A DNA stretch of 64,000 nt, taken from positions 1,721-65,720 of the forward strand of contig DASVDR010000046.1 of the NCBI GenBank assembly GCA_036381015.1, read 5' to 3'. Within the stretch, counting starts at the first letter, position 1; each line of letters begins with the position of its first letter. Below the pieces are notes generated by a model that had not been told where the DNA came from, did not search any database, and saw only the letters and a list, made by a program, of their open reading frames with translations. Positions 7,652 through 26,007 of this stretch are shown piece after piece. The position numbers and the translations under genes were made by a program. Source of the stretch: Gammaproteobacteria bacterium (lineage in GTDB: Bacteria; Pseudomonadota; Gammaproteobacteria; Steroidobacterales; Rariloculaceae).

Positions 7652-7694
7652 CAGGCGAATCATGACGGACGATAGAAAGCGCCCGGCGCCTCCT

Positions 7695-11601: not shown

Positions 11602-11688
11602 AAGCAGATCCTTTCGATGCGGTCGCCAACTCGTGTATAGCTTCCTGCGCTCCGGAAAACAACTTGGAGCGGAGGGACTGAATCCTCG

Positions 11689-12246
11689 ATGATCCATTCG
11701 CTCGATGGAATCGAGCGCCCAGTCGTAGACCGCACCGGCCAGATGGAGCTACCGATGAGAAACGAGCCCTCCAGCCCACTCTTCACCCTTTCTCCGTCAT
11801 TGCGGAAGGTGGTCCTGACGGCCCACATCGCCGTCTCTGTCGGACTCCTCGGCGACTCGGCCGGATATCTCGCAGTGGCCATCCGAGCGGCGGCGGCCGG
11901 CGACCCGACGGTCGCCGAAGTTTCGTACCAAACGCTCCGGATGTTCGCTTTCATGTTCGGTATTCCGCTCAGCTTCGCTGCATTGTTGACGGGGCTGCTG
12001 CTGGGCGTCGGTACCAGGTGGGGCGTGTTGCGATACCCATGGGTGATCGCCAAACTCCTTTTGATCGTCTCCGTTATTGCCGTCGGGGCGCTGGTACTCA
12101 AAGGCGGGATGGACGCGATGCTGACCGGACGCGGCGGGGCCGAGGGACGGTTGATCGCTGGGGCGGCCTACGACGTCGTCGCGCTCATGGTCGCCACTGC
12201 GCTCGCGGTGTTCAAGCCGGGGAAACGATTGGCGCAGAAGCAATGA
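11689..12246 (+). CDS. Integral membrane protein, about 4 TM helices, family not recognised
   Basis: Hydrophobic segments VVLTAHIAVSVGLLG, FAFMFGIPLSFAALLTGLLLGV, PWVIAKLLLIVSVIAVGALVL, AAYDVVALMVATALAVF. Start ambiguous (11689, 11743 or 11755). Confidence 0.55.
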   Translation: MIHSLDGIERPVVDRTGQMELPMRNEPSSPLFTLSPSLRKVVLTAHIAVSVGLLGDSAGYLAVAIRAAAAGDPTVAEVSYQTLRMFAFMFGIPLSFAALLTGLLLGVGTRWGVLRYPWVIAKLLLIVSVIAVGALVLKGGMDAMLTGRGGAEGRLIAGAAYDVVALMVATALAVFKPGKRLAQKQ

Positions 12247-12359
12247 TCGGCCGCGCTCGGACGCAAATTCAGATACCCGGCGGCGATCGCATTGGCAAGC
12301 CGCGCGGTAAGCTCGCCATAACAGTGAGTGGATAATGCGCCGGTTGACGATACGGCAAA

Positions 12360-13352
12360 ATGAAGGTTCTGATCACAGGCAGCGCGGGGCATCTCGGGGA
12401 AGCGCTCGTCCGGACGCTACGAGAGGCGGGCCACGACCCGATCGGGCTCGACATTCAGCCCTCGCCGTTCACGAGCGTCGTCGGGTCGTTCACGGACCCC
12501 GAGGTAGCGGACGACGCGATTCGAGGCGTGGAGGCGGTGCTTCACGCCGCGGCGCTCCACAAGCCGCACGTTGTGACGCACAGCCGGCGAGAGTTCGTCG
12601 ACACGAACGTCATTGGAACGCTCAACCTGCTCGAAGCCGGCGTCGCTCACGGGCTGAAGGCGTTCGTCTATACGAGCACGACGAGCGTCTTCGGCCGCGC
12701 GCTCACGCCCGCCGCCGGCGAGCCGACAGCCTGGATAACGGAGGACGTCGTACCGCTCCCGAAGAACATCTACGGCGTCACGAAGAAGGCGGCGGAAGAT
12801 CTGTGCGAGCTTTTTCACCGCAAGCACGGGTTGCCTTGTGTCATATTGCGAACGTCGCGCTTCTTCCCTGACGAGGACGACCAGGCCGCGATACGAAACG
12901 CGTACGACGACCGAAACGTCAAGGCCAACGAGTACCTTTACCGGCGTATCGACCTCGAAGACGTCGTTTCGGCTCACCTGCGCGCGCTCGAGCGCGCAAC
13001 CTCCCTCGGATTCGGCTGCTACATCGTCAGCGCGACGACGCCGTTCGTTCCGGACGACGCGGCGCAGCTCAGAACGGATGCGCCCGCCGTGCTCAAGCGG
13101 CTGTTCCCATCGTACGAAGCGGAGTACGAACGCCGAGGCTGGAGGATGTTCCGGAGCATCGATCGCATCTACTCGAACACGCGAGCGCGGCGCGAGCTCG
13201 AATGGGAGCCTCGCTGGAGCTTCGCGTACGTTCTCGAACGGCTGCGAGCGGATGAAGACATCGCGAGCGCGCTCGCGCGGACCGTCGGCTTCAAGGGCTA
13301 CCATGCCGGGAAGTTTGCCGGACGGATGTATCCAACCGATCCCGCCGAATGA
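12360..13352 (+). CDS. NAD-dependent epimerase/dehydratase family protein (extended SDR)
   Basis: Rossmann motif MKVLITGSAGHLGEAL, YTSTTSVFG, and catalytic YGVTKKAAE (YxxxK). Confidence 0.9.
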   Translation: MKVLITGSAGHLGEALVRTLREAGHDPIGLDIQPSPFTSVVGSFTDPEVADDAIRGVEAVLHAAALHKPHVVTHSRREFVDTNVIGTLNLLEAGVAHGLKAFVYTSTTSVFGRALTPAAGEPTAWITEDVVPLPKNIYGVTKKAAEDLCELFHRKHGLPCVILRTSRFFPDEDDQAAIRNAYDDRNVKANEYLYRRIDLEDVVSAHLRALERATSLGFGCYIVSATTPFVPDDAAQLRTDAPAVLKRLFPSYEAEYERRGWRMFRSIDRIYSNTRARRELEWEPRWSFAYVLERLRADEDIASALARTVGFKGYHAGKFAGRMYPTDPAE

Positions 13353-13583
13353 GCGCTCTCGCACTCGGCCTCGAGCTCGGACGTCTGACGACGCGACGAG
13401 TAAAATCGGCGGACCGGGCCGGGGGTCCGGAGCCGGCGTTCCTCGCGATACTCACGAGCCGCCCGGCGGCCGACTACAAGGGCATCACGCCACCGTGGAA
13501 CGATTGGCGTACAGTGCAGGAGCAGTGCCGGTCCGTAGCCAGGGCCTTGCTCGAGACCTAACGACTCACCAGGGGGACGAACG

Positions 13584-14678
13584 ATGACGAATTCTACGCA
13601 AGCCATGAAGCGGCTAAATGTGGTTGCGCTCGCTGCGGCGTCGCTGCTCGTAGCAGCGCTCGGCGCCGTCGCCACGGCGGCCTTCGCGCAGGAGGAGTCG
13701 GCGACGGATGCCGCGGCGCGGGCGGCCGAAGCCGTCGGGTGGGTGATCGGGGAAGGCCGGCGCGACAGCCGGGAATGGGCCGCCGAGAAACAGCGGCTCC
13801 AGCAGCTCGGTGAGCGGTTCGATTCCGCCGAAGCCCTCTATCGACACTTCAGGGAAGAAGCGGGCAACATCACGCCGCTCACCTATCGGGATCTCCTCGA
13901 GCACGCGGAGCTCTACGATTGGCGCGGGATATGGACCCGGGCCAGCGGCGGTCTTCAGTACGACCCCGACGTGCGGCCCGGTGAAGAGAACACGGCGCAG
14001 CTTACGCCGGCGGGGCAGGCGGCCGTGGCGGCCAAGATCCGGCAGCTTTCGACGACGGGCGGCGAGTACGATCCGATCAGCGATTGCCGCCCGCCGGGCG
14101 TGCCGCGCTGGCTGACGGAGCCTTTCTTGAGGGAATTCACGGTCGCGCCGCATCAAACCTGGCTGATCAACGAGATGGTCAACGATATCCGGCGCGTGTA
14201 TACCGACGGCCGCGAGCACACGGCGCCCGAGGACGCCTATCCTTCCTGGAACGGCGACTCGGTCGGCTTCTGGGACGACGGCACGCTGATCTTCTCGACG
14301 AAGTACCTGATGGAAGGCCAGTATCAACGCGGGACGATGCCGAATTATTCCTTCGAGGTGGAGACGGTCGAGCGCTGGCGCAGGACCGGGGAGGACCTGA
14401 TCGAGGCGGACGTTTGGGTGTACGACCCGGTCAATCTGGCCGAGCCGTGGTATACGAGGCAGGCTTACACGCGGCTTTCGAACGAAGACGGCTTCCTCCG
14501 CATCCGTTATTGGGATTGCCGCGAGAATCCGAACAACGACATCATCGTCACCGACGACGGGACCAGCCAATTTCCCGATTTCACATTCGTCGACGACGAC
14601 GCGGAGGTCAGCGACGACCCGAACGTCACGGCCCGGGGCAGCGATTTGAATACGGAAGCGCCGGCGAGCGTCGAGTGA
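13584..14678 (+). CDS. Exported protein, 'P-domain' paralog 1 (uncharacterised family, see findings)
   Basis: Signal peptide (MKRLNVVALAAASLLVAALGAVATAAFAQE). The C-terminal ~230 aa align by eye with four other ORFs in the window (DPISDCRPPGVPRW; RRVYTDGREHTAPEDAYPSWNGDSVGFWDDGTLIFST; VYDPVNLAEPWY; second Cys in YWDCRENP). Confidence 0.7.
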   Translation: MTNSTQAMKRLNVVALAAASLLVAALGAVATAAFAQEESATDAAARAAEAVGWVIGEGRRDSREWAAEKQRLQQLGERFDSAEALYRHFREEAGNITPLTYRDLLEHAELYDWRGIWTRASGGLQYDPDVRPGEENTAQLTPAGQAAVAAKIRQLSTTGGEYDPISDCRPPGVPRWLTEPFLREFTVAPHQTWLINEMVNDIRRVYTDGREHTAPEDAYPSWNGDSVGFWDDGTLIFSTKYLMEGQYQRGTMPNYSFEVETVERWRRTGEDLIEADVWVYDPVNLAEPWYTRQAYTRLSNEDGFLRIRYWDCRENPNNDIIVTDDGTSQFPDFTFVDDDAEVSDDPNVTARGSDLNTEAPASVE

Positions 14679-15009
14679 CTCGAAGGATTCCTCGCGTGCG
14701 CGCTCGCTCGTCGAGGGCCGCGGGCTTCCACCCGCGCACGACGAGCGCAGCGAGCCGGGCGTCAAGGACGGCGGTTCGGGCCGAGTCACTCGTCCCGCAA
14801 TCCCGCAATCGGGACGACGTGCCCGCCTCCGGGACGACGCGGTTGCCCTGAAGGACGGACAAAAGCGGAGCGGCGCCCTCCAGTCAACACCTTACGCGCC
14901 GGTCGGCCGGGTGGCACGCCCGTTGCTCGGACGCCGTATCGATCGGTGAGAGCCGACGTTCGCCCACAAGAGTTGCAGCGCCGATCGGGCGCCTGACGAG
15001 GTTGCGGTC

Positions 15010-17529
15010 ATGGCCATGAATCCTTTCCGACCGACGGCGCGGGTGCGCGCGATCATCCGCGCCGGATCGGCGTCCGACGCCGACGGCGAGCGCCGCGACA
15101 CGCGCGGCGCGGGCTGGTTCGATGCGGTGATGCGAGACCTCGTATACGCCTGCCGCTCGCTGCGCAGCGCGCCGCTCGTGGCCCTTACGGTCGTGACGAC
15201 GGTCGGGCTCGGCCTCGGGCTCGTGGCCGCCGTGTTCACGATCTTCAACGCGGTGATCTTTCGCGTGGACGAGGTGCGCAATCCGCAGGAGCTGTTCGCG
15301 GTGACGCGCCAGGCCCCGGCCGACTCAGCACCCGAGAAATTCACTCGCGAGCAGTACGAAGCGCTCCTCCGCGAGACGGACGCGTTCGTCGATGCGTTCG
15401 CGCTCGGCCCCGAAGTCGATCGAATCATCGACGGTCAGAGGATCGAGGGGCAGCTGGTCTCGGGAAACTTCTTTCAGGTCCTCGGCGTGAGCGCCGCCCG
15501 TGGACGCACTCTCGTCCCGGCGGACGACGAGACGGGCAACGATCACGTGATCGTTCTCAGCGGTCGCGCGTGGTCGCGGTACTTTGCGAGCGATCCCGGC
15601 GTTCTGAACCGCACGATCGACGTGAATGGCGTGCCGTTTCAGATCGTCGGCGTGATGCCGGAAGGCTTTCGGGGACTCGCGTTCGCGCCGCCGGACTTCT
15701 GGGCGCCGCTCTCGCTCCTCGGCGAGCTCCGGCCCAACAGCGACTCCGGCGAGCCCACCCTCGGCATCGTCGGGCGGCTCGCGCCCGGTCTGACCCGCGG
15801 CCAGGCGCTTGCGCAGCTCGTCGCGTGGGACGTGCGCCGGGCCGTGGAGACTTCCGGCGAGCGGCCGGACGCGAACCTCGTGCTCGAGCCGCGGCAGGGC
15901 ACGGTGCCGCTCTCGGCCGAGGCGATCGTGCTGTTCATGCCGCTCTTCTTCGCGTTCGGTCTGATCCTCATGATCGGCTGCGCGAACGTCGCCAACCTGC
16001 TGCTCGCCCGAGCCGTCGCCCGCCGGCGCGAAATCGGCATTCGCCTTGCAATCGGCGCCACGCGGCGCCGGATCATTGCGCAATTGCTCACCGAGAGCCT
16101 GCTGCTCGCGCTCGTGTCCGCCGCGCTCGGCTTCGGCGTTTCACGGCTGGTCCTCGAAGCCGTCGTCTACTACGTCACGACCGCCTGGGCGAATCTCGGC
16201 GACATTCGCCTCGTCGTGCCGCCGGCGGACTGGCGCGTCGCGCTGTTCCTCGTGATCGCCGCCCTTGCATCGACCCTGTTCTTCGCGCTCGCGCCCGCAC
16301 TTCAAGCCACGCGCTTCGATCTCGTGCGGCCGATGCATGGCGAGGCCGCCGCGGGCGAAGGCAGACCCGGCCGCGCTCGAAACGCGCTCGTCGCTCTCCA
16401 GGTGACCGGATCCGTGCTGCTCTTCGTCACCGCGGCGGTCTTCCTGCGCAGCAGCTGGGTAGCGGCGTCGCTGGACCCCGGTATCCGCACGACCGACACC
16501 GTGTTCGTGAACGTCGCGAGCGAGCGGCGGGGCGCGATGCTCGACGCGGTGAGGAGCGAGCCGTCCGTTGCGTCGGTTGCCGCCGCGACGCCGTTCTCGC
16601 TGAGCGCTGCGGCGCAGGGCGCAGTCGTCAAGCCGAACGCCGCGTACCGGTTCGTGTCGCCGAATTACTTCGAGGTCCTCGGCATCGAAATCGCGCGAGG
16701 ACGCGGCTTCGCGCCGACGGAGACGAGCTCGGCCGCCGCGGTCGCCGTGGTTTCGGAAAGCGCCGCGGAACAGCTATGGCCGGGTCTCGACGCGATCGGA
16801 CAACTCCTGCGGCTCGACCCCGGCCCGGAACAAGACGCGGCGGAACGGGAAGACGCGCCGCTTCTCCCGCGCACGGCCGTCGTCGTCGGCGTCGCGCGCG
16901 ACGTGCCGGGCTTTCGGCTCGCCGGCCAGAGCGTGTTGGCGGGACCCGATGTCTACCTGCCGATCGCCGCCGAGGCTGCCGGAACCTCGCTTGCGTTGCG
17001 CGTGCGCGGCAATCCGTCCGAGGTGAGCCGCCGGCTCCTCGCACGGCTAGAGACCGTGGAGGCCGGCGCGGCCGAGATCATCCCGCTGCGCGAGCTCTCG
17101 CGTATGGAAGCCGAGCTTCTCGCGATTCCGTTCTGGATCACGTTCGCGCTCGGCGCGCTCGCGCTCTTTTTGACCTTGTCGGGACTCTTCAGCGTGCTTT
17201 CGTATCTCGTCGAGCGACGCAGGCGGGAGATCGGCGTGCGGATGGCGCTCGGGGCGACGCGGCGAGGCATCGGTGCGCTCGTGTTGGCGCAAACGGCTCG
17301 GCCCGTCGCGGTCGGGCTGCTCCTCGGCAGCAGCTTCCCGGCCGCGGTCGGCGCCGCGCTGCTGGCGACGCCCCTCGCCGAGCAGATCGGGCAGACGGTG
17401 CGTCTCTTGGATCCGCTGGCCTACGCTGCCGGCTTGCTGTGCGTCGTCACGGCATGCGCCTTTGCGGCGCTCGTCCCGGTGCTGCGCGCGGGACGCGTCG
17501 ATCCGATCGCGGCGCTGAGGCAGGATTGA
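15010..17529 (+). CDS. Duplicated FtsX/MacB-type ABC transporter permease (ADOP-like architecture), no adjacent ATPase
   Basis: 839-aa ORF. DLVYACRSLRSAPLVALTVVTTVGLGLG N-terminal TM followed by a large periplasmic domain. Two FtsX modules are present (REIGIRLAIGATRRRI and REIGVRMALGATRRGI). Confidence 0.85.
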   Translation: MAMNPFRPTARVRAIIRAGSASDADGERRDTRGAGWFDAVMRDLVYACRSLRSAPLVALTVVTTVGLGLGLVAAVFTIFNAVIFRVDEVRNPQELFAVTRQAPADSAPEKFTREQYEALLRETDAFVDAFALGPEVDRIIDGQRIEGQLVSGNFFQVLGVSAARGRTLVPADDETGNDHVIVLSGRAWSRYFASDPGVLNRTIDVNGVPFQIVGVMPEGFRGLAFAPPDFWAPLSLLGELRPNSDSGEPTLGIVGRLAPGLTRGQALAQLVAWDVRRAVETSGERPDANLVLEPRQGTVPLSAEAIVLFMPLFFAFGLILMIGCANVANLLLARAVARRREIGIRLAIGATRRRIIAQLLTESLLLALVSAALGFGVSRLVLEAVVYYVTTAWANLGDIRLVVPPADWRVALFLVIAALASTLFFALAPALQATRFDLVRPMHGEAAAGEGRPGRARNALVALQVTGSVLLFVTAAVFLRSSWVAASLDPGIRTTDTVFVNVASERRGAMLDAVRSEPSVASVAAATPFSLSAAAQGAVVKPNAAYRFVSPNYFEVLGIEIARGRGFAPTETSSAAAVAVVSESAAEQLWPGLDAIGQLLRLDPGPEQDAAEREDAPLLPRTAVVVGVARDVPGFRLAGQSVLAGPDVYLPIAAEAAGTSLALRVRGNPSEVSRRLLARLETVEAGAAEIIPLRELSRMEAELLAIPFWITFALGALALFLTLSGLFSVLSYLVERRRREIGVRMALGATRRGIGALVLAQTARPVAVGLLLGSSFPAAVGAALLATPLAEQIGQTVRLLDPLAYAAGLLCVVTACAFAALVPVLRAGRVDPIAALRQD

Positions 17530-17577: not shown

Positions 17578-18564
17578 TCAGAATGCGCGGACCGGGCGCA
17601 CGACCACCGTGGCAAGGGATTTCGACACCAGCACCGCTCCGCCGCCCCCGGCGAAGTCGATCGCTACGGCGGAGTTCTCGTCAAGCTCGGTGGAGCTCGC
17701 GTAGGACATCACGGCGAAGCCGTGCTCGTCGCGGAAGTTCGTGTGCGTCGCGAGGTTGTCGTGCATCGCCTCGAGCTCGTCCCGAGAAGGCAGGAACCAG
17801 TCGTCGTACCCGTTGATCTCGGCCGCGGCCGCAATCCGGGCCGGCGCGCTGCATCCCGGGTCGGCCAGAATCGCAGTGTTGTCGGAACCCGCGCCGATTG
17901 CGGCCGCTGTCGCGCCGACGAGCGTGCCAGCGCAGCCCCACGTTTCCCAGGGATCGGGTTCGCCGGCATTCCACTGCCGGGGCGCGGCCTCGAGGTATCG
18001 CCATCCGCCCGCGTCGTCGCCCTTGTCGTAGAACACGATGCCGCCGGCCGGGCCCCTGTCGCCAATCGAATAGACCTTTCGCACCAGGCGCACGTACGCG
18101 CCCGCTTCGTGCTTGAAAGGCAGCGCCGCGCCGATGTCGAAGCGAACGACCCACGCGAGCCCCGGCAGGCCGGCGTACGGCGTGCCGGTCCAGACCGCGC
18201 TCGAGCCGGCCGGGAAAACCATCGTGTTCAGCGACGGCCCGGCGCGGCAGAATTCGACGAGGCTCGCGAGCTCGGCCCGGTTCGGCAGCCGCCAGTCCTG
18301 ATAACCGGCGAGCGCGGCCGTGGCCGCCGCCTGCAACGCCTGATCCCACGGCATCACGGTCGGTGTGCCGGCACAAAGCTCGCCACTCTGGCCGATCAGA
18401 CAGCGGCTCCACATCAACCGCGTGCGTTCGTGCGTGACGGTGCCGTCGCCGTGGATCTCGAACTCGTCTAACGGCGTCGTCACCGGGATCTGCGCGTTGT
18501 CGCAAAAGTCGGCTGCGCCGGCGGCGGCGGGTAGAAGCAAGGAAAGGATCCATCCGTAACGCAT
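17578..18564 (-). CDS. Secreted protein with two DUF1566 (Lcl C-terminal)-like modules
   Basis: Signal peptide MRYGWILSLLLPAAAGAAD. Family-typical motifs LMWSRC ... WRLPNRAELASLV and WFLPSRDELEAM. ATG at 18564, with a GTG one codon upstream. Confidence 0.8.
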   Translation of the reverse strand: MRYGWILSLLLPAAAGAADFCDNAQIPVTTPLDEFEIHGDGTVTHERTRLMWSRCLIGQSGELCAGTPTVMPWDQALQAAATAALAGYQDWRLPNRAELASLVEFCRAGPSLNTMVFPAGSSAVWTGTPYAGLPGLAWVVRFDIGAALPFKHEAGAYVRLVRKVYSIGDRGPAGGIVFYDKGDDAGGWRYLEAAPRQWNAGEPDPWETWGCAGTLVGATAAAIGAGSDNTAILADPGCSAPARIAAAAEINGYDDWFLPSRDELEAMHDNLATHTNFRDEHGFAVMSYASSTELDENSAVAIDFAGGGGAVLVSKSLATVVVRPVRAF

Positions 18565-18583
18565 CACGATCGGCCTCCGGCGC

Positions 18584-19714
18584 TCAGTCGTCGGCGCGCA
18601 CCAGCCGCACGTGCGCGGCGTAATTTTTCGCGGGGTTCACCAGCTGGCCGTCCGTGAAGTCGATGCTCCACGCGATATTGGCGTCCGGCGCGAAAGCCGT
18701 AGCGGTCCAGTAGAGCGGGTCGCTCGAAGGCACGTCCGGGAAGTAGTCGATGTCGACGGCCGGCGAGACCCGGCCATGGTGCACGATCGACGCGAGCTCG
18801 GCCGCAGTCGGCATGCGCCAGTCGTCGAACCCGCAGAGTCCTTCGTCGTTCACGGCGTCCACATAGGCTTGCGTGTCGCATGCGGAGCCGCTGCAGACGC
18901 CGCCGTTCGGAACACCCGCCTGGCCGCCGTTGCGCTCGGCATCCGGCAAGTACCACGAGTACGTGTGGCCGCGATGGCGCGCCGTGCCGGGCGCGTCCGG
19001 CCGGATCTCCCAGAGCAGGCCCGTCACATGATCGAGCGTGCAGGCCCAATCGGCCTCGTTCGAGCCGAGCGCCGCATCGGGCGGCAGCGCGATGCCCGCG
19101 TGGGACACCTTCGTGAAGTCGAAACCGGCCGCGCCCGCCCCTTGCTTGCTCAGAGCACCGCGGCGGGCGGCCGCGTCGCGGCCCCAGTCGCCGTCTTGGC
19201 CCGGGTAGCTCGGATGCGGGCAGTCGAGCGCGAGATCGACGGCGTCGGCGCACCGGTCGAAACCGGAGTCGTTCAGCATGCCGGATGCGGCGTTCGCGAT
19301 CCTGTCCGGCAACGTCACCGCTTTCGTCGCGCTCGGCACGCCTTCTTCGCCGTCCGCAAAGGCGGTCACGATGAAGTAGTACGTCGCGCCGTGCGTCAAG
19401 CCCGTGACGGTGTGCGGGCTCGAGACGTTCTGAAGCCACACGCCGCCTTCGTAGGCCGCGTAGTCGTCCGGCGTGAGATCCGGGTCCTCGGCGTAATAGA
19501 TGTGATGACCCTCGGCGTTCGGCACCTCGCTCCAGACGACCGTCACGCTGCCGTGGCCGGCGGTCAGCGTCACGTCTTCCGGTGCCGCGAGCTCGGGCTC
19601 GTTCGGGGACTCGCCCGGGTCCGTGGGCGAATTCCCGCTCGGCGCCCCTCCGCTGCCGCCTCCGCCGCAGCCGGCGAGACTCGCCGCGGCGAGCCCGAGC
19701 CAGAGCTTGCGCAC
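18584..19714 (-). CDS. Lipoprotein with FN3-like domain + DUF1566-like domain
   Basis: Lipobox LAAASLAGC after a GTG at 19714 (the ORF track extends to 19828). FN3-like segment APEDVTLTAGHGSVTVVWSEVPNAEGHHIYY ... ATYYFIVTAF. DUF1566-type LLWEI ... WRMPTAAELASIV. Confidence 0.75.
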   Translation of the reverse strand: MRKLWLGLAAASLAGCGGGGSGGAPSGNSPTDPGESPNEPELAAPEDVTLTAGHGSVTVVWSEVPNAEGHHIYYAEDPDLTPDDYAAYEGGVWLQNVSSPHTVTGLTHGATYYFIVTAFADGEEGVPSATKAVTLPDRIANAASGMLNDSGFDRCADAVDLALDCPHPSYPGQDGDWGRDAAARRGALSKQGAGAAGFDFTKVSHAGIALPPDAALGSNEADWACTLDHVTGLLWEIRPDAPGTARHRGHTYSWYLPDAERNGGQAGVPNGGVCSGSACDTQAYVDAVNDEGLCGFDDWRMPTAAELASIVHHGRVSPAVDIDYFPDVPSSDPLYWTATAFAPDANIAWSIDFTDGQLVNPAKNYAAHVRLVRADD

Positions 19715-19905
19715 GGTATGGCTCCCCGACGGAACCGCTGCCGTCACGCCGCCTCCTTGCAGTGCCTTTTCGCAGGTTCGCGCGCGGGCAGCGATCGGCC
19801 CGCGCATGGCCAGTGACAGTAGGCGCAAGCGGTGCTGCGCGCGACGAAACGAGTCACACGCCTTGCACGAAAATCCGCATTCGTGGCCGGGCTGTCGCGG
19901 CCCCT

Positions 19906-19931: not shown

Positions 19932-19998
19932 CAATGTTTACGTTCACGATGGAGGACATATGTCCAAGCGGCGCGCTGTTCGGCGGTGCGCTTTTTTC

Positions 19999-20026
19999 TT
20001 GCCTGTTATGTCCGCTATCGTATACA
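19999..20026 (+). promoter_or_regulatory. Candidate sigma70-type promoter for hipB (TTGCCT - 16 nt - TATACA)
   Basis: -35-like TTGCCT (19999-20004) and -10-like TATACA (20021-20026), about 25 nt upstream of the hipB ATG. Pattern match only. Confidence 0.3.
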
Positions 20027-20050
20027 TTAAAAGCGTTAACGTTTGTTTTC

Positions 20051-20398
20051 ATGAACATTACGAGCCGAAAAGCTGATTACGCCCTTCCGCTTCCGGTCCG
20101 ACGGGCGCTGCGCAAGCTGGGCCAGGATGTGCGTCAGGCGCGGCTGCGCCGGCGCCTGCCCGCGGCTGTCGTCGCGGAACGGGCGTCGATCAGCCGCACG
20201 ACGCTGTTCAAGCTGGAAAAAGGCGAGCCCGGCGTCTCCATCGGCATTGTCGCGACCGTGCTGTTCGTGCTCGGGCTGGGAGAGCGGCTGAGCGAGCTCG
20301 CCGATGTCAGGCACGATGAGCACGGTCTTGCCCTCGAAGAAGAGCGGCTGCCCCAGCGCATCCGGCGACGACGGCGCACACCGGCGGAAACGGCCTGA
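20051..20398 (+). CDS. hipB: XRE-family HTH protein, HipB-like antitoxin
   Basis: HTH ERASISRTTLFKLEKGEPGVSIGIVATVLFVLGL. The stop overlaps the ATG of a HipA N-terminal-like ORF (TGATG). ATG at 20051 chosen; the ORF track starts at 19934. Confidence 0.8.
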   Translation: MNITSRKADYALPLPVRRALRKLGQDVRQARLRRRLPAAVVAERASISRTTLFKLEKGEPGVSIGIVATVLFVLGLGERLSELADVRHDEHGLALEEERLPQRIRRRRRTPAETA

Positions 20399-20840
20399 TG
20401 GATCGGGAAACTTTCGTCCATGCCGATCTCGACGGCCGGCCGCACCTCGTGGGCCGGCTCTACACTCGCCTGCGCAACGGCCGCGAAAGCGCGACCTTCG
20501 AATACGACGACAGCTGGCTGAGCCACCCGGAACGGTTTGCGCTCGAGCCGGCCCTGAAGCTGGGGCCCGGCCCTTTTCATACGGCTACCGACAGCCGCGT
20601 ATCTTGAGCACGGCGATCGACGAGGAGGATCAGACGGCCTCGCTCGCGCTGGCACTGTCCGTCGCCGAATATTTCGATCTCGAGCAGCGCCAAGCACAGG
20701 AGATTGCCGGAGAAGTCGCCGCGGCGACCGCGCAGTGGCGCGCGGAAGCGCAGCGCTTCGGTCTGACGCGCGCACAGTGCGACCGTATGGAATCGGCATT
20801 CGTGCACACGGATCTCGAGACCGCACTCTCCTTTGCCTAG
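20398..20840 (+). pseudogene. hipA: Decayed hipA-like toxin gene (N-terminal ~65 aa and C-terminal ~80 aa in different frames; kinase core missing)
   Basis: Frame 1 (20398-20607) reads HLVGRLYTRLRNGRESATFEYDDSWLSHPERFALEPALKLGP, a HipA N-terminal coupling-domain pattern, then stops. Another frame (to 20840) reads ASLALALSVAEYFDLEQRQAQEIAGEVAAATAQWRAEAQRFGLTRAQCDRMESAF, a HipA extreme C-terminus pattern. Total length is about 440 nt against roughly 1.3 kb for intact hipA genes. Confidence 0.65.
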
Positions 20841-21043
20841 GGGCACCCTGAAGCCTTCACGAAACGCTCGTCTTCCGGAAGACCGGCGCGAGTGTCGCGG
20901 ACCGGACAGATGCAAAGGTATTCTATGAGCTAGCATATTCCCAAAAGCGATCGATAGAGCAGGGGCTGGGACGCGCTTGCGGAGCCGCTCATTCGATAGA
21001 GCTCATTTCGATAAGAACAAGTCAACGTGTCTGGGAGGCATCC

Positions 21044-23947
21044 ATGACACCTCGATTCCACCGTCTCTCCCTCGAGGAGTTCGCCGCCCTGCTCGCATGC
21101 TTTCCGTTTTCTCGCCGTATCAACGCCGTCCACCTGCATCATACCTGGCGGCCGAACCATGCCCAGTTCCGCGGTCACGACACCATCGTGGCCATGTGGA
21201 GGTATCACACGCAGGAGAAGGGCTGGAGTGACATCGCCCAACACGTCACGATCGATCCCGAAGGGATGATCTGGACCGGGCGCAACTGGAATCGCCCGCC
21301 GGCCAGCGCATCCGGGCAGAACGGCAATGCGTCCTTTGGGCCGTTCATGATCGAGACAGTGGGCGACTTCGATGCTGGACGAGACCGCTTCGAGGGTTGT
21401 CAGCGCGACACGGTGTTGAAGGTGATCGCGCTTGTGCAGAAGCGCTTCGAGCTCAAGGCAAGCTCACTGCGGTTCCACTGTCAAATGTCGTCGAAAACGT
21501 GCCCGGGGAGCGCGATCGACTATGACGAGGTCGTAAACGCAGCTCAGGAGCTTCTCGAGAGCGGCATCGACATCGCACCGACGGCGCCCCCGGACGCTTT
21601 GCCTTTCCCGAGGTCGGCCTTGGCGCTGGCCGACGTCCAGACCGATCTCATGAACCGGGGCGCGGCTCGCGCCGACGATCCGGCGCACGCCGAGCCCGAG
21701 GAGGAGGCCGGCTCGCCGTTCGCCTACACCTCCGGGCTGCCGGGGCCGAAGCCCGAGATCCTCGCGCGGGAGCGCAAACTCTCGCCGGCTGAGCTTGCCG
21801 ATTTGCGGCCCCATGTCATCAACTTGCGGCAGGGCGTCTTCTCGCACGATGGCGCGATAACGTGCTCGAAGGCCGACGTCGACGCCATCTTCGAGGAGCA
21901 CCTGCCGCGCCGACTGGCCGCACAACCCGACGGCAAGCCGCTGCCCATCGTGTTCTACGCCCACGGTGGCCTGGTCTCGGAGTCTTCCGCGCTGAATCTC
22001 GCGCAGCAGCACGTGACGTGGTGGCTCGCTAACGGCGTCTACCCGATCTACTTCGTCTGGGAAACGGGGCTGTTCGAGACGGTGGGTCAGCTTCTCGAGC
22101 GCACTAGGGTACGCACTCGCGCCGCTGCCCGAGATCTCTGGGATTACACGACGGATCCTCTCGTCGAAATCGCCGTCCGCGCGCTTTACGGCCCCATGAT
22201 TTGGGGTGGTATGAAACGCAGCGCAGAGCGCGCGTCGGCCGACGCGGGCGGTGCGCGGTATACCGCCGGGAAGCTTGCGGAGTTCTGCAAGAGCAACGGC
22301 GGGGCCGTGGAGCTGCACGCCGTCGGCCACAGCGCGGGCTCGATCTTCCATGCGCACTTCCTGCCGGTCGCGCTCGAAGCCTGCTCTCTGCCGTTCAAGA
22401 CGCTCCATCTCCTCGCGCCGGCGGCGCGAGTCGACCTCTTTCTCGATCGGCTAGCGCCGCTCATGGGCAAGCCCAACGGTATCGGCGAAACGACCTTGTT
22501 CACGATGCGTGAGGATTTCGAGCGCGCCGATCGGTGCACGCCGATCTACCGCAAGTCGCTGCTGTATCTCGTGAGCCGGGCGCTCGAGGACGAGCCGAAG
22601 GCGCCGATCTTGGGGCTCGAGGAGTGCTTGCGAGCGAACGCCGAGTTGCGTCGACGTTTCGGGCTCGGCAGGCACGGCGACGACGGCGACGTCGTGTGGT
22701 CGCTTTCGGCGAGCGACGACGGACGCAGCGCGTCGCGGTCGACGACCCATGGGGGTTTCGACAACGACCCCGCCACGATGAACAGCGTCGCCCGGCGCGT
22801 ACTGAACAAGGGCGATACGGAGCGGCTCGAGCGCGCCTTCCCCGAGGTGGACGGCCGGCGCGCGCTGGCAGCAGACGACTGGAGCGATGCCGTGGACTGG
22901 CCCGAAGGCCTCGAGTTCGTTTCGCCCCCGGTTCGGTCGCGTCCGTCGCTTGCCGGCGCGACGATCGGCGTGACGACGTCGGCTCCTGCGCAGACCCGCC
23001 CCGTGGTCGCACCTGCGATCGGGCGCCGGCTCGCCGTATGCGTCGGCATCGACGCGTATGCGAGCAGCCCGCTCGCCGGCTGCGTCGCTGATGCGCGACT
23101 GTGGGCGCGAACGCTGACGGATCTGGGGTTCGACGCGCCGACGGTGCTCGTCAACGAAGTCGCGACGCGCAGCGGGATCCTCGACGCCCTCGCGCGGGCC
23201 CTGGCCTCGAGCCAGGCAGGCGACGTCGTCGTGTTTCAATATTCCGGCCACGGCACGCAGGTGCCGGATGTCGACAACGACGAGGCGGCGGGCGATTCGC
23301 CGGGCCTCGACGAGGCGCTGTGTCCGTTCGACATGGACGCGGGCGCATTCCTCATCGACGACGATCTTGCGGAAGTGCTCGCCGAGGCACCGGCCGGAGT
23401 CAACGTGACGCTCTTCATCGATTGCTGCCATAGCGGAACGATCTCGCGGCTCGGCGTCGGGGCGCCGAGCAGCGGGGCGCGCGGCGACGCGCGGTTCCGA
23501 TATATCACGCCGTCGCCTGAAGCGCTCGAAGCGCACCGCCGGTTCCGGTTGCGGCTCGGCGGGGCGCGGCACCGTCGACGAGGACCGGAGACGATGCGCG
23601 AGGTGCTGTTCTCGGCGTGCCTCTCGCACGAGGTGGCGTGGGAAAGTGCGGGCCAAGGGGAGTTCACGCTCCGGGCCACGCGTGAGCTCGCCGCAGGCAT
23701 CGAGGGGCTCTCGAATGAAGCGTTTCTCGAGCGCGTGCGTCGCGCTTTCGGAGCGCAGCCGCGTCAGCATCCCGAGCTCGACTGTGCGCCGCAGCGGCGC
23801 AGCGGCCCCCTCCTCGGGGCAGAGTCGGCGCTGACCAGCGTCACGGTGAGCGACTTGGGCACGTACTGCGGCAAGCCGGTACAGAACAGGACGAGATCGC
23901 GGATCCCGGCGCTGTTGCGTGAGATTGCCGGCGAGCTCGACGGCTAG
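21044..23947 (+). CDS. Three-enzyme fusion protein: Amidase_2 (PGRP/AmpD/T7-lysozyme-type N-acetylmuramoyl-L-alanine amidase) + GxSxG alpha/beta-hydrolase-like domain + caspase-like peptidase C14 domain
   Basis: 967 aa, strong RBS GGGAGG 5 nt before the ATG, no signal peptide or TM. aa 25-160: HLHHT ... FHCQMSSKTCPG (Zn-ligand pattern H, H, C). aa ~295-530: PIVFYAHGGL ... AVGHSAGS (nucleophile elbow, S430). aa ~660-925: RLAVCVGIDAY ... FQYSGHGTQ (H736) ... LFIDCCHSGT (C795). Confidence 0.85.
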   Translation: MTPRFHRLSLEEFAALLACFPFSRRINAVHLHHTWRPNHAQFRGHDTIVAMWRYHTQEKGWSDIAQHVTIDPEGMIWTGRNWNRPPASASGQNGNASFGPFMIETVGDFDAGRDRFEGCQRDTVLKVIALVQKRFELKASSLRFHCQMSSKTCPGSAIDYDEVVNAAQELLESGIDIAPTAPPDALPFPRSALALADVQTDLMNRGAARADDPAHAEPEEEAGSPFAYTSGLPGPKPEILARERKLSPAELADLRPHVINLRQGVFSHDGAITCSKADVDAIFEEHLPRRLAAQPDGKPLPIVFYAHGGLVSESSALNLAQQHVTWWLANGVYPIYFVWETGLFETVGQLLERTRVRTRAAARDLWDYTTDPLVEIAVRALYGPMIWGGMKRSAERASADAGGARYTAGKLAEFCKSNGGAVELHAVGHSAGSIFHAHFLPVALEACSLPFKTLHLLAPAARVDLFLDRLAPLMGKPNGIGETTLFTMREDFERADRCTPIYRKSLLYLVSRALEDEPKAPILGLEECLRANAELRRRFGLGRHGDDGDVVWSLSASDDGRSASRSTTHGGFDNDPATMNSVARRVLNKGDTERLERAFPEVDGRRALAADDWSDAVDWPEGLEFVSPPVRSRPSLAGATIGVTTSAPAQTRPVVAPAIGRRLAVCVGIDAYASSPLAGCVADARLWARTLTDLGFDAPTVLVNEVATRSGILDALARALASSQAGDVVVFQYSGHGTQVPDVDNDEAAGDSPGLDEALCPFDMDAGAFLIDDDLAEVLAEAPAGVNVTLFIDCCHSGTISRLGVGAPSSGARGDARFRYITPSPEALEAHRRFRLRLGGARHRRRGPETMREVLFSACLSHEVAWESAGQGEFTLRATRELAAGIEGLSNEAFLERVRRAFGAQPRQHPELDCAPQRRSGPLLGAESALTSVTVSDLGTYCGKPVQNRTRSRIPALLREIAGELDG

Positions 23948-23961: not shown

Positions 23962-26007
23962 ATGGCGGCGCGCGACGACGCGAAGTCACCGTCGACGCCG
24001 GGCGCGAGCGCGGCCGTTGCGCAAAGCAGCATTATCCAGTCGCGCGCAATGGACCGAGAAGCGGACGCGGGGCTCGAAGGCGACGGCACGCGCGGGGCGG
24101 GCGCAGATTCGGCAGCGGACGCCGGCCTCGGCTCCCGGGCACGAGACGACTCGCCGCGAGGCCCAGCGGGGCTGTCGGCCGGTGCGCGGGGCAACACTTG
24201 GCAGCTGGGCCCGCGCATCTATCGTGCGGTGGAAACGCATCCTTACGAGCGCCGGTCCACGGATCCGATCTATCGGCCCCTGAGAATCTTCTCGCTGGAT
24301 CCCGCCACCTCTCGGCTCGAAGGCGCCGTGGCGCTCCTCAACGTGCCTTACGAGCCGCTCGACCCAGGGCCCCGCGGTGTCCTGCTGGAGGTCGATCCGA
24401 CCGACGGCGCAATAGGCGTGCGGTATCGTTCGGCCAACCTCGATGACCCGGACGTCTTGATACGTGACGGCTACGATCCGTCCACCTCCGATCCTCGGTT
24501 CCATCAGCAGATGGTATACGCGGTCGGCTCATTGACGTACGCGGCATTCAGGTCGGCTCTGGGCCGCGACATCGCCTGGGGATTCGATGGCGACGGCCGC
24601 GCCGGACGACCCACTCGCCTCACGTTGCGTCCGCACGGCTGCATCGAGCGCAACGCGTATTACGACAAGGCCGATGGGTCGATCTCTTTCGGTTACTTCC
24701 GGGCCGATCGCGTCGTGGCAGGTCGCAACCTGCCGGGCGGTTTCGTGTTCACCTGCCTGTCGCACGACATCATCGCACACGAGATGACACACGCGTTGCT
24801 CGACGGGTTGCGCGCACACTTCGCCTATCCCAGCGGTCCGGACGTCCTCGCCTTTCACGAGGCCTTCGCGGATCTCGTGGCAATCTTCCAGCATTTCAGC
24901 TACAAGGAAGTGCTCCATGCGGCCATTCGACGCACGCGCGGTGACCTGCGCAAGTCACAGCTACTAACGGCGCTTGCCACCCAGTTCGGCCATACGACGG
25001 GCTCGAGCCAGCCGTTGCGCACGGCTATCGACGTGCAGGGTCTCGACGGAAAGCCGCTGCAATACGGCGAAGCCACCGAGCCGCATGCGCGAGGCGCGGT
25101 GCTGACGAGCGCCGTCTTCGACGCGTTCACGACGGTGTTCGATCGCAAAGTGGAACGCTATGTGCGCCTCGCGACGGGCGGCTCCGGCGTGTTGCCCGAA
25201 GGCGAAATTCACCCGGACCTTAGCGCCGTGCTGGCCGAGGAGGCCGCGAAGCTCGCAAGCCAGTTCCTCTCGATCTGCATCCGGGCCATCGACTATTGCC
25301 CCGCAGTCGATCTCGAGTTCGGCGAATTCTTGCGCGCCGTGATAACCGCCGACAAGGATCTCGTGCCGAACGACCCGTGGGGGTACCGCGAAGCCTGGAT
25401 AGATGCTTTCCGGCGGCGTGCGATTTATCCGCCGCGCACTCTCAGCCTGTCCGAGGATGCGTTGCTATGGCGACCGACGCGCGTCCCGATTGGCAGGCAA
25501 GAGGAGCTCAGCTTCTCGGCGCTGCGTTTCGCGGGCGATCCCGGCCGCGTCGCCGGGCGGCCGGAGCTCGAGCGCCAGGCAGACGCCCTCGGTCGCCTCG
25601 TTTGCGACCCGAGGTATATGGGCGAGTTCGGTTTCTGCCGGAACGGCCACCCGGCACTCGGCCGCGATACGGTCGATCCGCCCTGCATCGAATCCGTCCG
25701 CACGTTGCGCCGGGTCGGTCCGGACGGGCAGATCGTCTTCGACCTCATTGGCGAGGTTACGCAACGGCGCAGAGTAGGCGGGAGCAGGCGAAAGGCGTTT
25801 GACTTTTACGGGGGCGCCACCGTGATTCTGGATCCCCATGGGTCCATTCGCTATGTCGTCTCCAAGAGCGTGTTGAATGCCGAGCGGATCGACCGCCAGC
25901 GAGCATTTATCAGGAGCGGAGTCGGCAAGCGGTTTTGGAGCGACGAGGGCGGAGCGTACGTGGCGCGGGGAAACGCGTTGCGCTTGCTGCATGCGCTTGA
26001 ACGTTGA
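23962..26007 (+). CDS. Thermolysin-like (gluzincin, HExxH + E) zinc metallopeptidase, cytoplasmic-looking, with low-complexity N-terminus
   Basis: 681 aa, starting 15 nt after the upstream stop. DIIAHEMTHALLDG (H273, E274, H277), then AFHEAFADLVA 23 residues later (E300; compare thermolysin-family NEAxSD). No signal peptide. The first ~75 aa are Ala/Gly/Asp/Arg-rich, and the true start may be internal. Confidence 0.75.
   Translation: MAARDDAKSPSTPGASAAVAQSSIIQSRAMDREADAGLEGDGTRGAGADSAADAGLGSRARDDSPRGPAGLSAGARGNTWQLGPRIYRAVETHPYERRSTDPIYRPLRIFSLDPATSRLEGAVALLNVPYEPLDPGPRGVLLEVDPTDGAIGVRYRSANLDDPDVLIRDGYDPSTSDPRFHQQMVYAVGSLTYAAFRSALGRDIAWGFDGDGRAGRPTRLTLRPHGCIERNAYYDKADGSISFGYFRADRVVAGRNLPGGFVFTCLSHDIIAHEMTHALLDGLRAHFAYPSGPDVLAFHEAFADLVAIFQHFSYKEVLHAAIRRTRGDLRKSQLLTALATQFGHTTGSSQPLRTAIDVQGLDGKPLQYGEATEPHARGAVLTSAVFDAFTTVFDRKVERYVRLATGGSGVLPEGEIHPDLSAVLAEEAAKLASQFLSICIRAIDYCPAVDLEFGEFLRAVITADKDLVPNDPWGYREAWIDAFRRRAIYPPRTLSLSEDALLWRPTRVPIGRQEELSFSALRFAGDPGRVAGRPELERQADALGRLVCDPRYMGEFGFCRNGHPALGRDTVDPPCIESVRTLRRVGPDGQIVFDLIGEVTQRRRVGGSRRKAFDFYGGATVILDPHGSIRYVVSKSVLNAERIDRQRAFIRSGVGKRFWSDEGGAYVARGNALRLLHALER

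Follow-up and report, generated by a model that had tools for sequence, protein, structure and literature searches.

An amidase–hydrolase–metacaspase fusion paired with a thermolysin-like protease, a possible bacterial conflict module

Results

Organization of the locus

The window (the whole stretch of DNA that was analysed, 64,000 nucleotides, 68% GC) contains two adjacent genes whose products carry four enzyme-like domains between them. Gene 1 encodes an N-terminal Amidase_2/PGRP-type domain, a middle α/β-hydrolase domain and a metacaspase-like Peptidase_C14 domain in one polypeptide, and gene 2 encodes a thermolysin-fold zinc metalloprotease (Table 1). A Shine-Dalgarno sequence (GGGAGG) locates 7 nt upstream of the ATG of gene 1, and its GC3 of 0.82 is usual for genes of this window. 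The AlphaFold2 model of gene 1 consists of three confident blocks with disordered linkers between them. A hydropathy scan found no signal peptide or transmembrane segment in either protein. The maximal Kyte-Doolittle value of any 19-residue window is not above 1.5 for gene 1 and not above 1.3 for the partner, which supports that both proteins are cytoplasmic.

The first-pass annotation of gene 1 had proposed an Amidase_2 domain with three zinc ligands, an α/β hydrolase with the nucleophile elbow G-H-S430-A-G and a C14 protease with the dyad H736/C795, without any signal peptide or transmembrane segment. The hydropathy scan agrees with the last point, and all three domain assignments were right: the amidase and C14 domains were recovered by Pfam, and the hydrolase was confirmed by its motifs together with AlphaFold2 and Foldseek. 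All of the residue numbers were also correct when rechecked.

Table 1. Features of the two-gene locus, with positions in the window.
Feature	Residues	Position (nt)	Strand	Basis
Gene 1: Amidase_2/PGRP + α/β hydrolase + metacaspase-like C14, cytoplasmic	967 aa	21044..23947	+	ORF, GC3, Shine-Dalgarno, Pfam, homologs, AF2
N-terminal Amidase_2/PGRP-type domain	1-175	21044..21568	+	PF01510, PGRP-LB/T7 lysozyme profile alignment, invariant columns, BFVD
Disordered linker 1	176-244	21569..21775	+	pLDDT <50 at aa 181-188 and 207-242
Conserved acidic motif DPADAEPxE in linker 1	211-221	21674-21706	+	alignment
Middle α/β-hydrolase (lipase-like) domain	245-600	21776..22843	+	invariant motifs, AF2 topology, BFVD matches
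Disordered linker 2	601-657	22844..23014	+	pLDDT <50 at aa 603-657
Conserved motif WxxQVDWPExL in linker 2	613-623	about 22880-22912	+	alignment
Metacaspase-like Peptidase_C14 domain	658-928	23015..23827	+	Pfam, PDB profile matches, Foldseek, invariant residues
C-terminal tail: disordered stretch, then conserved amphipathic helix (LLRxxAxxL)	helix 949-966	23828..23944	+	AF2, alignment
Gene 2: thermolysin-fold (M4-like) zinc metalloprotease	681 aa	23962..26007	+	14 nt after gene 1; linkage, invariants, AF2, Foldseek
Conserved N-terminal peptide of partner, [PA]STPxA[ST]AAxAQ[ST]R type		23992..24027	+	about 22 of 30 aligned partners, variable linker next
Gene 2 HEMTH	273-277	24778-24792	+	invariant residues
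Gene 2 third zinc ligand region HEAFADL	299-305	24856-24876	+	invariant residues

The N-terminal amidase-like domain

Pfam Amidase_2 (PF01510) matches residues 24–155 of gene 1 (E 1.4e-8, 35.5 bits against a cut-off of 26), and the family profile matched PGRP-LB, PGRP-SA and T7 lysozyme in the PDB with E-values of 1e-7 to 1e-6. The zinc ligands are H32, H145 and C153, which align with H42, H152 and C160 of PGRP-LB and are invariant in 28 homologs. Foldseek against BFVD also matched phage amidases (TM 0.74). With the PGRP/T7 lysozyme/AmpD family (PF01510), the domain shares its fold and an H-H-C zinc site, and the Lys two residues ahead of the Cys is placed as in T7 lysozyme (K151, corresponding to T7 K128).

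In contrast to PGRPs and T7 lysozyme, the domain shares its chain with two further enzymes and has an invariant Gln in place of the catalytic Tyr. This Gln66, in the motif DIAQH, occupies the position of Y78 in PGRP-LB and Y46 in T7 lysozyme, a replacement overlooked in the first-pass annotation. The Tyr is needed for the amidase activity of both T7 lysozyme and PGRP-LB. K151 is conserved in the domain and so is E104, which we take to be at the general-base position of AmpD (E116); therefore, amidase activity is still possible despite Gln66. The DIAQH subtype is also present in a stand-alone Bacillus plasmid protein.

The middle hydrolase domain and the linkers

No Pfam family matched the middle domain at E ≤ 10. 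Its AlphaFold2 model is confident and has the strand and helix order of an α/β hydrolase, with strand 422–429 preceding the nucleophile elbow and helix 432–446 following it. The invariant residues comprise the oxyanion motif AHGGL (306–310), the nucleophile elbow G428-H-S430-A-G432, D496 and H569, so that S430, D496 and H569 stand in Ser-acid-His order. These motifs persist in relatives that share only about 33% identity and are joined to other proteases. Foldseek against BFVD matched herpesvirus and adenovirus lipases and DUF676 (probability 0.94–0.98) and a PGAP1-like protein (0.54), with modest E-values of 2e-3 to 2e-2. A homolog fused to a C1 protease gave a weak DUF900 match (E 0.004), and hhalign of the domain with a DUF7379/LCAT-like set gave a probability of 9.6%. 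A disordered Arg-rich loop (residues 353–369) lies within the domain.

The middle domain was found in 2305 representative clusters. In other proteins its fusion partner is a C14, CHAT, S41 or C1 protease, and the domains at the N-terminus vary. It is a mobile module, a point missed when gene 1 was first annotated. The linkers on its two sides contain conserved residues: E217 is invariant amid the otherwise variable sequence of linker 1, and W613 and P620 are nearly invariant in linker 2.

The caspase-like domain

Pfam Peptidase_C14 (PF00656) matches residues 661–915 above its cut-off (E 1.2e-28), and the catalytic dyad H736/C795 is invariant in the homolog alignment. The domain profile matched metacaspases in the PDB. 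The top PDB matches of the model by Foldseek were GSU0716 (PDB 3bij, TM 0.80), metacaspase 4, Yca1, MALT1 and caspases. The C14 fold, the His-Cys dyad and an acidic segment are common to gene 1 and the prokaryotic metacaspases/orthocaspases (MEROPS C14B), of which GSU0716 is the nearest structure. In the acidic segment (DxDxxD…DEAxCPxD), D742, D746, D756, E757 and D763 are invariant. It lies where metacaspases carry the S1/Ca2+ site and, by this analogy, a preference for Arg/Lys at P1 and a dependence on Ca2+ are putative properties of the domain. A disordered Arg-containing loop (residues 797–813) follows the catalytic Cys.

The thermolysin-like partner

In 62 of the 74 informative loci, the partner gene follows gene 1 directly and in the same orientation, which indicates a two-gene operon. 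The gap between the two genes has a median of 6 nt, and nine of the starts are overlapping. That the downstream gene is a conserved thermolysin-like partner had escaped the first-pass annotation.

H273, E274, H277, E300 and D304 are invariant among the partner homologs. The AlphaFold2 model (pLDDT 84.6, pTM 0.85) matched thermolysin (1kei, 4tnl, 5fxn) and aureolysin (7skl) by Foldseek with a probability of 1.0 and a TM of 0.60, and its C-terminal domain is β-rich. The HExxH motif with a downstream Glu and the two-lobed fold are common to gene 2 and the thermolysin-like metallopeptidases (MEROPS M4: thermolysin, aureolysin). Some homologs are named "peptidase M4" by NCBI. However, gene 2 had no match to Pfam or NCBIfam, M4 models included, and its profile reached a neutral protease in the PDB at an E-value of only 0.89. 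Unlike M4 enzymes, the protein is cytoplasmic and has no signal peptide or FTP/PepSY propeptide. The family is about 620 aa long and differs from thermolysin-like M4 also by its extra C-terminal β domain and conserved N-terminal peptide. This peptide is enclosed in a disordered leader (residues 1–73, pLDDT <50) and is a candidate docking or cleavage site.

Distribution and neighbourhoods

More than 120 full-length homologs of gene 1 were found at about 50% identity. Relatives of about 50% identity occur in about 280 species from more than 10 phyla (among 185,579 species genomes), and the distribution is patchy. The flanking genes are unrelated from locus to locus, with 94 Pfam families in 107 neighbours. 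The parts of the module recombine. At one locus (L083), an Amidase_2-C14 gene is followed by a DUF7379-middle domain-C14 gene and then by the thermolysin-like partner, and at two others (L011 and L072) the M4-like partner is absent and a CHAT protease and an α/β hydrolase are present instead.

The neighbours are heterogeneous and mostly ordinary genes, few of which match defence models. Some loci adjoin transposases, toxin-antitoxin genes, STAND/WD40 genes or other caspases, and some adjoin CRISPR, MADS, DrmC, Lamassu or Avs-like genes. In the window, the neighbourhood is ordinary chromosomal, with signalling and transport genes and a decayed hipBA. In PADLOC-DB v2, gene 1 matched only the generic "caspase" model PDLC02987 and gene 2 had no match; neither protein belongs to a system defined there.

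Discussion

Proposed function and mechanism

A role in conflict or defence can reasonably be inferred for the gene pair. With a probability of about 0.5, the two genes form a mobile cytoplasmic protease-effector conflict module, most likely one for abortive infection or anti-phage cell death. The domain identities with their invariant catalytic residues, the linkage of the two genes, the patchy spread, the unrelated flanks, the recombining parts, the mobile-element and defence neighbours of some loci and the precedent of caspase and α/β-hydrolase modules (PMC12642450) were counted for this reading. The lack of a PADLOC system, the mostly ordinary neighbours, those in the window included, and an Arg-rich loop consensus without an evident R↓G were counted against it.

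Pairs of a caspase-like protease and an α/β-hydrolase zymogen act as protease-activated anti-phage death effectors (Evans et al. 2025, bioRxiv, PMC12642450). In the Lysobacter capsici pair LcCaspase/LcHydrolase, the caspase cuts after Arg, and the hydrolase has two conserved R↓G cleavage sites (PMC12642450). As in gene 1, a caspase-fold protease is tied genetically to a lipase-like α/β hydrolase, the two systems being likened by fold. Modules of this type also share with the gene 1 family many different N-terminal domains, horizontal transfer and a cytoplasmic location. In contrast to them, gene 1 has the hydrolase and the caspase in one chain and an Amidase_2/PGRP domain at the "sensor" position, and its obligate neighbour is a second, thermolysin-like protease. 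The family consensus of loop 353–369 shows no evident R↓G motif. By analogy, the two genes are best read as a variant of the protease-gated caspase and α/β-hydrolase modules.

In the following scheme, we infer what would trigger such a module, in which order it would be cleaved and on which substrates it would act. Both proteins would be produced in a latent form. A trigger would then turn on the metacaspase, and the best candidate for the sensor is the N-terminal amidase-like domain, which may respond to muropeptides or cell-wall damage, in line with the hypothesis of the first-pass annotation that an AmpD-like sensor may control the effectors; alternatively, Ca2+ entry could be the trigger, as for metacaspases. 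The metacaspase would cut behind Arg or Lys at conserved sites. Candidates in gene 1 are the loop after its catalytic Cys, the Arg-rich hydrolase loop and the motifs of the linkers; in the partner, the candidate is the "AQSR" leader. Cleavage would free the hydrolase together with the metalloprotease, and perhaps also the amidase, and the freed enzymes would kill or arrest the cell. The presence of conserved short motifs within disordered linkers and the partner leader was also counted in favour of the proposal. The amidase domain keeps its zinc site, Lys151 and Glu104, and could therefore act as an effector instead of a sensor.

In a more specific form of the proposal, the PGRP-fold domain would sense peptidoglycan fragments in the cytosol, released as a phage, lysin or antibiotic breaks through the wall, and would directly switch on the caspase and through it the thermolysin-like protease and the lipase-like effector. 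We regard this form as unlikely. In Drosophila, PGRP-LC/LE, IMD and Dredd make up a PGRP-to-caspase signalling route that is coupled via adaptor proteins. Gene 1 also couples a PGRP fold to a caspase fold, by fusion rather than by adaptors; this is a resemblance only and no sign of common descent. If the sensor proposal is true, gene 1 would be a bacterial analogue, in a single polypeptide, of the PGRP-to-caspase axis of animal innate immunity, and cell-wall damage would be a new class of trigger for bacterial abortive infection.

Alternative explanations

The same latent machinery could serve stress-triggered or developmental cell death or autolysis, with envelope damage, starvation or population cues instead of phage, which is rather unlikely. 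Metacaspases are classically activated by Ca2+ or stress, and many of the loci have no defence neighbours. An autolysis or programmed cell death role for amidase-metacaspase fusions was suggested, as speculation, by Asplund-Samuelsson et al. (PMC3501461), and Evans et al. allowed that protease-effector modules may serve stress responses too (PMC12642450). However, patchy horizontal spread and a fast-changing architecture are more typical of conflict systems, and the module is not linked to developmental or cell-wall operons.

It is quite unlikely that the pair is a multi-enzyme toxin delivered against bacteria or eukaryotes by a contractile injection system, a T6SS or lysis, with the caspase domain for autoprocessing. 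In Azotobacter chroococcum, the pair lies immediately upstream of an eCIS/PVC-like cluster that includes sheath, tube, Pvc16 and AAA genes, and the set of amidase, lipase and protease resembles toxin arsenals. In contrast, no eCIS sheath or tube homolog was found within ±10 kb in the 80 other loci, the proteins have no signal peptide, and no PAAR, VgrG, secretion adaptor or conserved small immunity gene was found near the module in the neighbourhood survey. What is conserved next to gene 1 is a 620-aa protease rather than an immunity protein, and the gene 1 protease is a metacaspase (C14) rather than a C80 CPD. The suggestion of the first-pass annotation that gene 1 is a T6SS-like multi-effector with a MARTX-CPD-like domain thus received little support.

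A housekeeping function, in which AmpD-like recycling of muropeptides in the cytoplasm is coupled to peptide or lipid turnover, is very unlikely. It would suit a cytoplasmic Amidase_2 domain with an intact zinc site and AmpD-like Glu/Lys, and some loci are amid ordinary genes. However, the module is carried by only about 280 of the 185,579 species genomes, genes of the ampG, nagZ, ldcA and mpl type were not linked to it in the neighbourhood survey, and a metacaspase fusion paired with a thermolysin-like protease is without precedent in recycling pathways.

A prophage or phage lysis cassette with an endolysin-type amidase, which had been named at the outset as a setting that would count against a defence role, is close to refuted: Amidase_2 is common in endolysins and phage amidases match structurally in BFVD, but tblastn of 50,697 phage records gave only a single caspase fragment, from a jumbo phage, and no homolog of full length, and the neighbourhood survey found no conserved holin or phage structural genes nearby.

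Significance and relation to earlier surveys

If the gene pair is a defence or death system, it would be a widespread and strongly conserved addition to the protease-gated effectors, with hundreds of species and thousands of metagenomic homologs. New among them would be the PGRP-type domain at the sensor position, the union of a hydrolase with its own caspase in one chain and the obligate second protease of thermolysin type, and this combination would imply a true proteolytic cascade. The system would also be a tractable one in which to ask whether fragments of a bacterium's own cell wall serve it as a danger signal, and would define a new α/β-hydrolase family that has no Pfam model and travels with proteases. 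If it does not act in defence, it is still a conserved, uncharacterised enzyme pair.

The three-way fusion had been taken at first pass for a system not yet described, which holds only in part. Fusions of Amidase_2 and metacaspase domains were catalogued in 2012 by Asplund-Samuelsson et al. (PMC3501461), without a function. That survey covered Pfam-visible domains only, and the middle hydrolase and the conserved partner were not noted in it. The Polaromonas naphthalenivorans CJ2 protein of the 2012 list is a full-length homolog of gene 1 (P0105, 49% identical). The two-gene module of this strain is set amid housekeeping genes, with a comEC-like gene upstream and parC/parE downstream.

Gene 1 and its thermolysin-like partner

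Gene 1, whose product is 967 amino acids long, is a real ORF. Its codon-position GC contents (0.69/0.51/0.82) match those of real genes in this window of ~68% GC, and a Shine-Dalgarno sequence (GGGAGG) lies 7 nt upstream of the ATG. More than 120 full-length homologs with ~50% identity were retrieved from 5.8 billion proteins, and "caspase family protein" was the most informative name among them. The amidase zinc ligands, AHGGL, GHSAG, D496, H569 and the H736/C795 dyad are invariant in an alignment of 28 homologs. The AlphaFold2 model (mean pLDDT 78.5) consists of confident globular blocks at residues 1–175, ~245–600 and ~660–925, which are connected by disordered linkers. The first-pass annotation had described gene 1 as a candidate three-enzyme conflict or defence protein, and the motifs and residue numbers on which it relied were all found to be correct.

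The finding widens to a two-gene system, since a partner that had not been noticed in the first pass, gene 2, starts 14 nt past the stop of gene 1. No match to gene 2 was obtained with Pfam or NCBIfam. AlphaFold2 predicted it with very high confidence (pLDDT 84.6, pTM 0.85), the model matches thermolysin and aureolysin with a Foldseek probability of 1.0, and some of its homologs carry the NCBI name "peptidase M4". Invariant residues are found in an HExxH motif (H273, E274, H277) and, further along the chain, in HEAFADL (E300, D304). The protein opens with a disordered leader of ~70 residues, and the first residues of this leader form a conserved peptide, [PA]STPxA[ST]AAxAQ[ST]R, in ~22 of 30 gene 2 sequences. 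Among 80 loci from GTDB species genomes, 74 had enough downstream sequence to be judged, and gene 2 lies directly downstream of gene 1 on the same strand in 62 of these; the median gap is 6 nt, and the starts overlap in nine cases. All-against-all ORF clustering of 81 loci gave only gene 1, gene 2 and shadow ORFs, and no third conserved gene.

Coordinates of the gene pair, its surroundings and the loci compared
Sequence	Position	Strand	Feature
Window	17578-19828	-	Two tandem Lcl_C-domain genes
Window	19934-20840	+	hipB-like HTH gene and hipA remnants
Window	20001-22000		GC dip
Window	21044-23947	+	Gene 1
Window	23962-26007	+	Gene 2, 681 aa
Window	36808-39552	-	914-aa ABC exporter/receiver ORF
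L011, Azospirillum canadense	10001-16461		Locus with CHAT-like extension
L072, Hymenobacter fastidiosus	10001-16261		Locus with α/β-hydrolase+CHAT protein
L081, Sinorhizobium sp. B11 megaplasmid	6170-8128		Papain-like domain fused to middle domain
L082, Ideonella dechloratans megaplasmid	6008-8206		Papain-like domain fused to middle domain
L083, JGI soil metagenome Ga0132258_10005926	4163-11803		System split into three genes
L085, Azotobacter chroococcum CP011835.1	15365-22868		eCIS-like cluster downstream of the gene pair
L088, ENA contig_581	1690-22856		Gene pair in conflict-rich island
L089, Bacillus cereus C1L plasmid pC1L1	3962-4501		Stand-alone amidase-like protein

The three domains of gene 1

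Pfam matched Amidase_2 at residues 24–155 (E 1.4e-8, above cut-off) and Peptidase_C14 at residues 661–915 (E 1.2e-28), which bears out both assignments of the first-pass annotation. The family profile of the N-terminal domain aligns with PGRP-LB, PGRP-SA and T7 lysozyme (E ~1e-7). In this alignment H32, H145 and C153 correspond to H42, H152 and C160 of PGRP-LB, and K151, two residues ahead of the Cys, takes the same place as K128 of T7 lysozyme. In contrast, the catalytic Tyr of PGRP-LB (Y78) and T7 lysozyme (Y46) is replaced by an invariant Gln66; the PGRP-LB Y78F mutant is among the PDB matches of the profile. An invariant E104 (MIE104TVG) is located at what we take to be the general-base position of AmpD (GIE116LEG). 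The domain may still be an enzyme, and sequence cannot tell such a role from that of a sensor. In Bacillus cereus (L089) a stand-alone protein of 179 aa, named "peptidoglycan recognition family protein", is 39% identical to this domain and shares the unusual DIAQH, in which Gln takes the place of Tyr. Genes for S8 peptidases, and for an M4 peptidase and its inhibitor emfourin, lie within a few kb of it, possibly by coincidence.

The C-terminal domain is of the metacaspase type. Its profile matches include Mca1, MCA2, metacaspase-4 and metacaspase-9, its top structural match is GSU0716 (TM 0.80), and an acidic DxDxxD…DEAxCPxD segment is invariant in the homolog alignment. NCBIfam gave only a sub-threshold caspase_w_EACC1 match for the gene pair.

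For the middle domain, as for gene 2, Pfam gave no match at E<=10, and the middle domain has no sequence relative in the PDB. The AlphaFold2 model presents a strand ending in HGG, a strand-GHSAG-helix unit, more strand-helix units and then D496 and H569, and both HGG and Ser-Asp-His are invariant in relatives as distant as ~33% identity. When the whole gene 1 model was compared with BFVD by Foldseek, viral lipases, a phospholipase-like protein and DUF676 were matched at probabilities of 0.94–0.98 and a PGAP1-like protein at 0.54, the E-values of these hydrolase matches being 2e-3 to 2e-2 with the whole model as query; metacaspases and phage amidases were returned as well. The order of secondary structure, the invariant residues and the BFVD matches together point to an α/β hydrolase, in line with the GxSxG hydrolase proposed in the first pass. 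A weak DUF900 match was seen in one homolog. No relationship with the DUF7379/LCAT-like α/β hydrolases of the variant loci was found by hhalign, and no R-G motif is evident in the family consensus of the Arg-rich disordered loop (residues 353–369).

Modularity of the hydrolase domain

The middle domain (MD) alone was found in 2305 clusters in a search of 1.84 billion representative proteins. Its architectures include DUF7379–MD–C14, C11+CHAT–MD–C14, DUF7363+CHAT–MD–C14, MD–C14, MD–S41, MD–CHAT and, on rhizobial and Ideonella megaplasmids, C1 (papain)–MD. The two megaplasmid fusions (L081, L082) are annotated "C1 family peptidase", and their MD is ~33% identical with the triad intact. Neither has a thermolysin-like neighbour; a hypothetical gene upstream of the Sinorhizobium fusion was compared with gene 2 and ruled out as a homolog. 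In a soil metagenome (L083) successive genes encode an Amidase_2–C14 protein without the middle domain (597 aa), a DUF7379–MD–C14 protein (1287 aa) and a thermolysin-like partner that is 54% identical to gene 2 of the window. That the same parts are fused at some loci and split at others is classic evidence that they function together, and it shows that the core logic of the system lies in the coupling of a hydrolase to a protease.

The partner protease appears to be swapped at two loci without the M4-like gene. At L011 a CHAT-like C-terminal extension is followed by an LCAT-like hydrolase gene, and at L072 an α/β-hydrolase+CHAT protein is encoded downstream; both hydrolases are of the LCAT/DUF676/DUF7379-like α/β type. 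The Azospirillum protein P0051 (1657 aa) was ruled out as a gene 1–gene 2 fusion, its extra C-terminus being CHAT-like. One Thermomicrobiales MAG has two gene 1 copies on two contigs. Downstream of one copy, no more than part of a partner-like ORF was found (54% identity over 215 aligned residues). The adjoining ORF has a DDE transposase domain of the IS240 type, and an IS element may have interrupted the partner gene.

Proposed mechanism and alternatives

Evans et al. (2025 preprint) described a protease-effector defence module made of a caspase-like protease and a neighbouring α/β-hydrolase, in which the hydrolase zymogen is cut by the caspase after two Arg and, once cleaved, is lethal to the cell; a wide variety of sensors are found fused to modules of this kind (PMC12642450). 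The gene 1/gene 2 family fits this logic. It differs in having hydrolase and caspase in one chain, a domain of the PGRP type in the usual sensor position and a thermolysin-like second protease as its obligate partner. PADLOC assigned only its generic caspase model to the pair. The first-pass annotation had not recognised the three-way fusion as a described system. This holds for function, as no functional study of the amidase–hydrolase–metacaspase architecture was found in the literature, but the combination of Amidase_2 with a metacaspase had been catalogued, without a function, in 2012: Asplund-Samuelsson et al. listed four such proteins, the Polaromonas CJ2 homolog among them, for which a role in autolysis or PCD was speculated (PMC3501461). 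This is a large family with strong conservation, and its PGRP-caspase parallel is attractive.

We favour, with a probability of about 0.5, a latent, cytoplasmic death or defence module gated by proteolysis. A trigger, either a ligand on the amidase-like domain or Ca2+ entry, would activate the metacaspase, which would then cut at conserved basic sites. Cleavage is predicted to follow Arg or Lys. Candidate sites in gene 1 lie in the post-Cys loop of the metacaspase at residues 797–819, in the loop of the hydrolase and in the linkers with their conserved motifs (DPADAEPxE, WxxQVDWPExL), and in gene 2 at the AQSR leader. Cleavage would unleash the lipase-like hydrolase and the thermolysin-like protease. 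The same machinery might serve a non-phage PCD or stress module, to which we give a small but real chance. A delivered multi-enzyme toxin is quite improbable; in a hydrophobicity scan neither protein had a segment that would qualify as a TM helix or signal peptide, and the absence of export signals claimed earlier thus stands.

Of 185,579 species genomes, 280 were confirmed to carry relatives; they come from Pseudomonadota, Acidobacteriota, Nitrospirota, Armatimonadota, Chloroflexota and Bacteroidota as well as Chlorobiota, Gemmatimonadota, Verrucomicrobiota, Methylomirabilota, Binatia and Cyanobacteria. Culturable carriers include Pseudomonas fluorescens PS723, Azotobacter chroococcum and Polaromonas CJ2. 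The immediate neighbours at ~70 loci belong to 94 different Pfam families, each seen at most three times. A few match defence models (MADS mad2/mad6, DrmC, LmuA, Avs1a, DRT reverse transcriptase, PD-T4-6), and a few are PIN toxins or transposases. The defence interpretation of the first pass is supported in part: the protease-effector logic fits, but the neighbours are mostly varied and few match defence models. A defence role is what we infer for the pair.

At L088 the pair lies in a conflict-rich island. Two further caspase proteins are encoded there, one of them with FGE-sulfatase, along with an nSTAND1-WD40 protein of 1597 aa, a DDE transposase, ParB and Cas6/RAMP (type III CRISPR) genes. 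In Azotobacter (L085) an eCIS-like cluster (Phage_sheath_1, T4 gp19 tube, Pvc16_N, AAA) is located ~650 nt downstream on the same strand; a general eCIS link was ruled out, as 0 of 80 other loci show such a cluster. In Polaromonas CJ2 the two-gene module sits amid housekeeping genes, with a comEC-like gene upstream and parC/parE downstream. A housekeeping role is very unlikely, and the neighbours showed no connection with operons for cell-wall recycling. A phage lysis cassette is extremely improbable, because phage records contain no full-length gene 1 homolog; of the two settings that the first pass had named as counter-evidence, prophage lysis and cell-wall recycling, the former is thereby excluded and neither was seen.

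Surroundings of the gene pair in the window

Directly upstream of the module is a hipB-like gene (HTH_31; NCBIfam couple_hipB/Y4mF, sub-threshold), followed by two short out-of-frame ORFs (Couple_hipA E 0.0055), which resemble what is left of the N- and C-terminal parts of a hipA toxin after decay. Neither the HTH gene nor the toxin-antitoxin remnant is conserved at other loci. The GC dip (0.639 versus ~0.68–0.70 in the flanks) takes in the hipBA remnant and the beginning of gene 1, together with the intergenic region, and is compatible with horizontally acquired DNA. A convergent GGDEF gene follows gene 2, the remaining genes of the window are ordinary signalling and transport genes, and the window contains no tRNA. 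The two Lcl_C genes (Legionella collagen-like C-terminal domain), one of which also has fn3, run divergently from the hipB-like gene. The 914-aa ORF, an unusual fusion of transporter and signalling parts, joins an ABC exporter (ABC_membrane and ABC_tran) to a receiver domain and to a HATPase_c match that is weak and falls below the cut-off.
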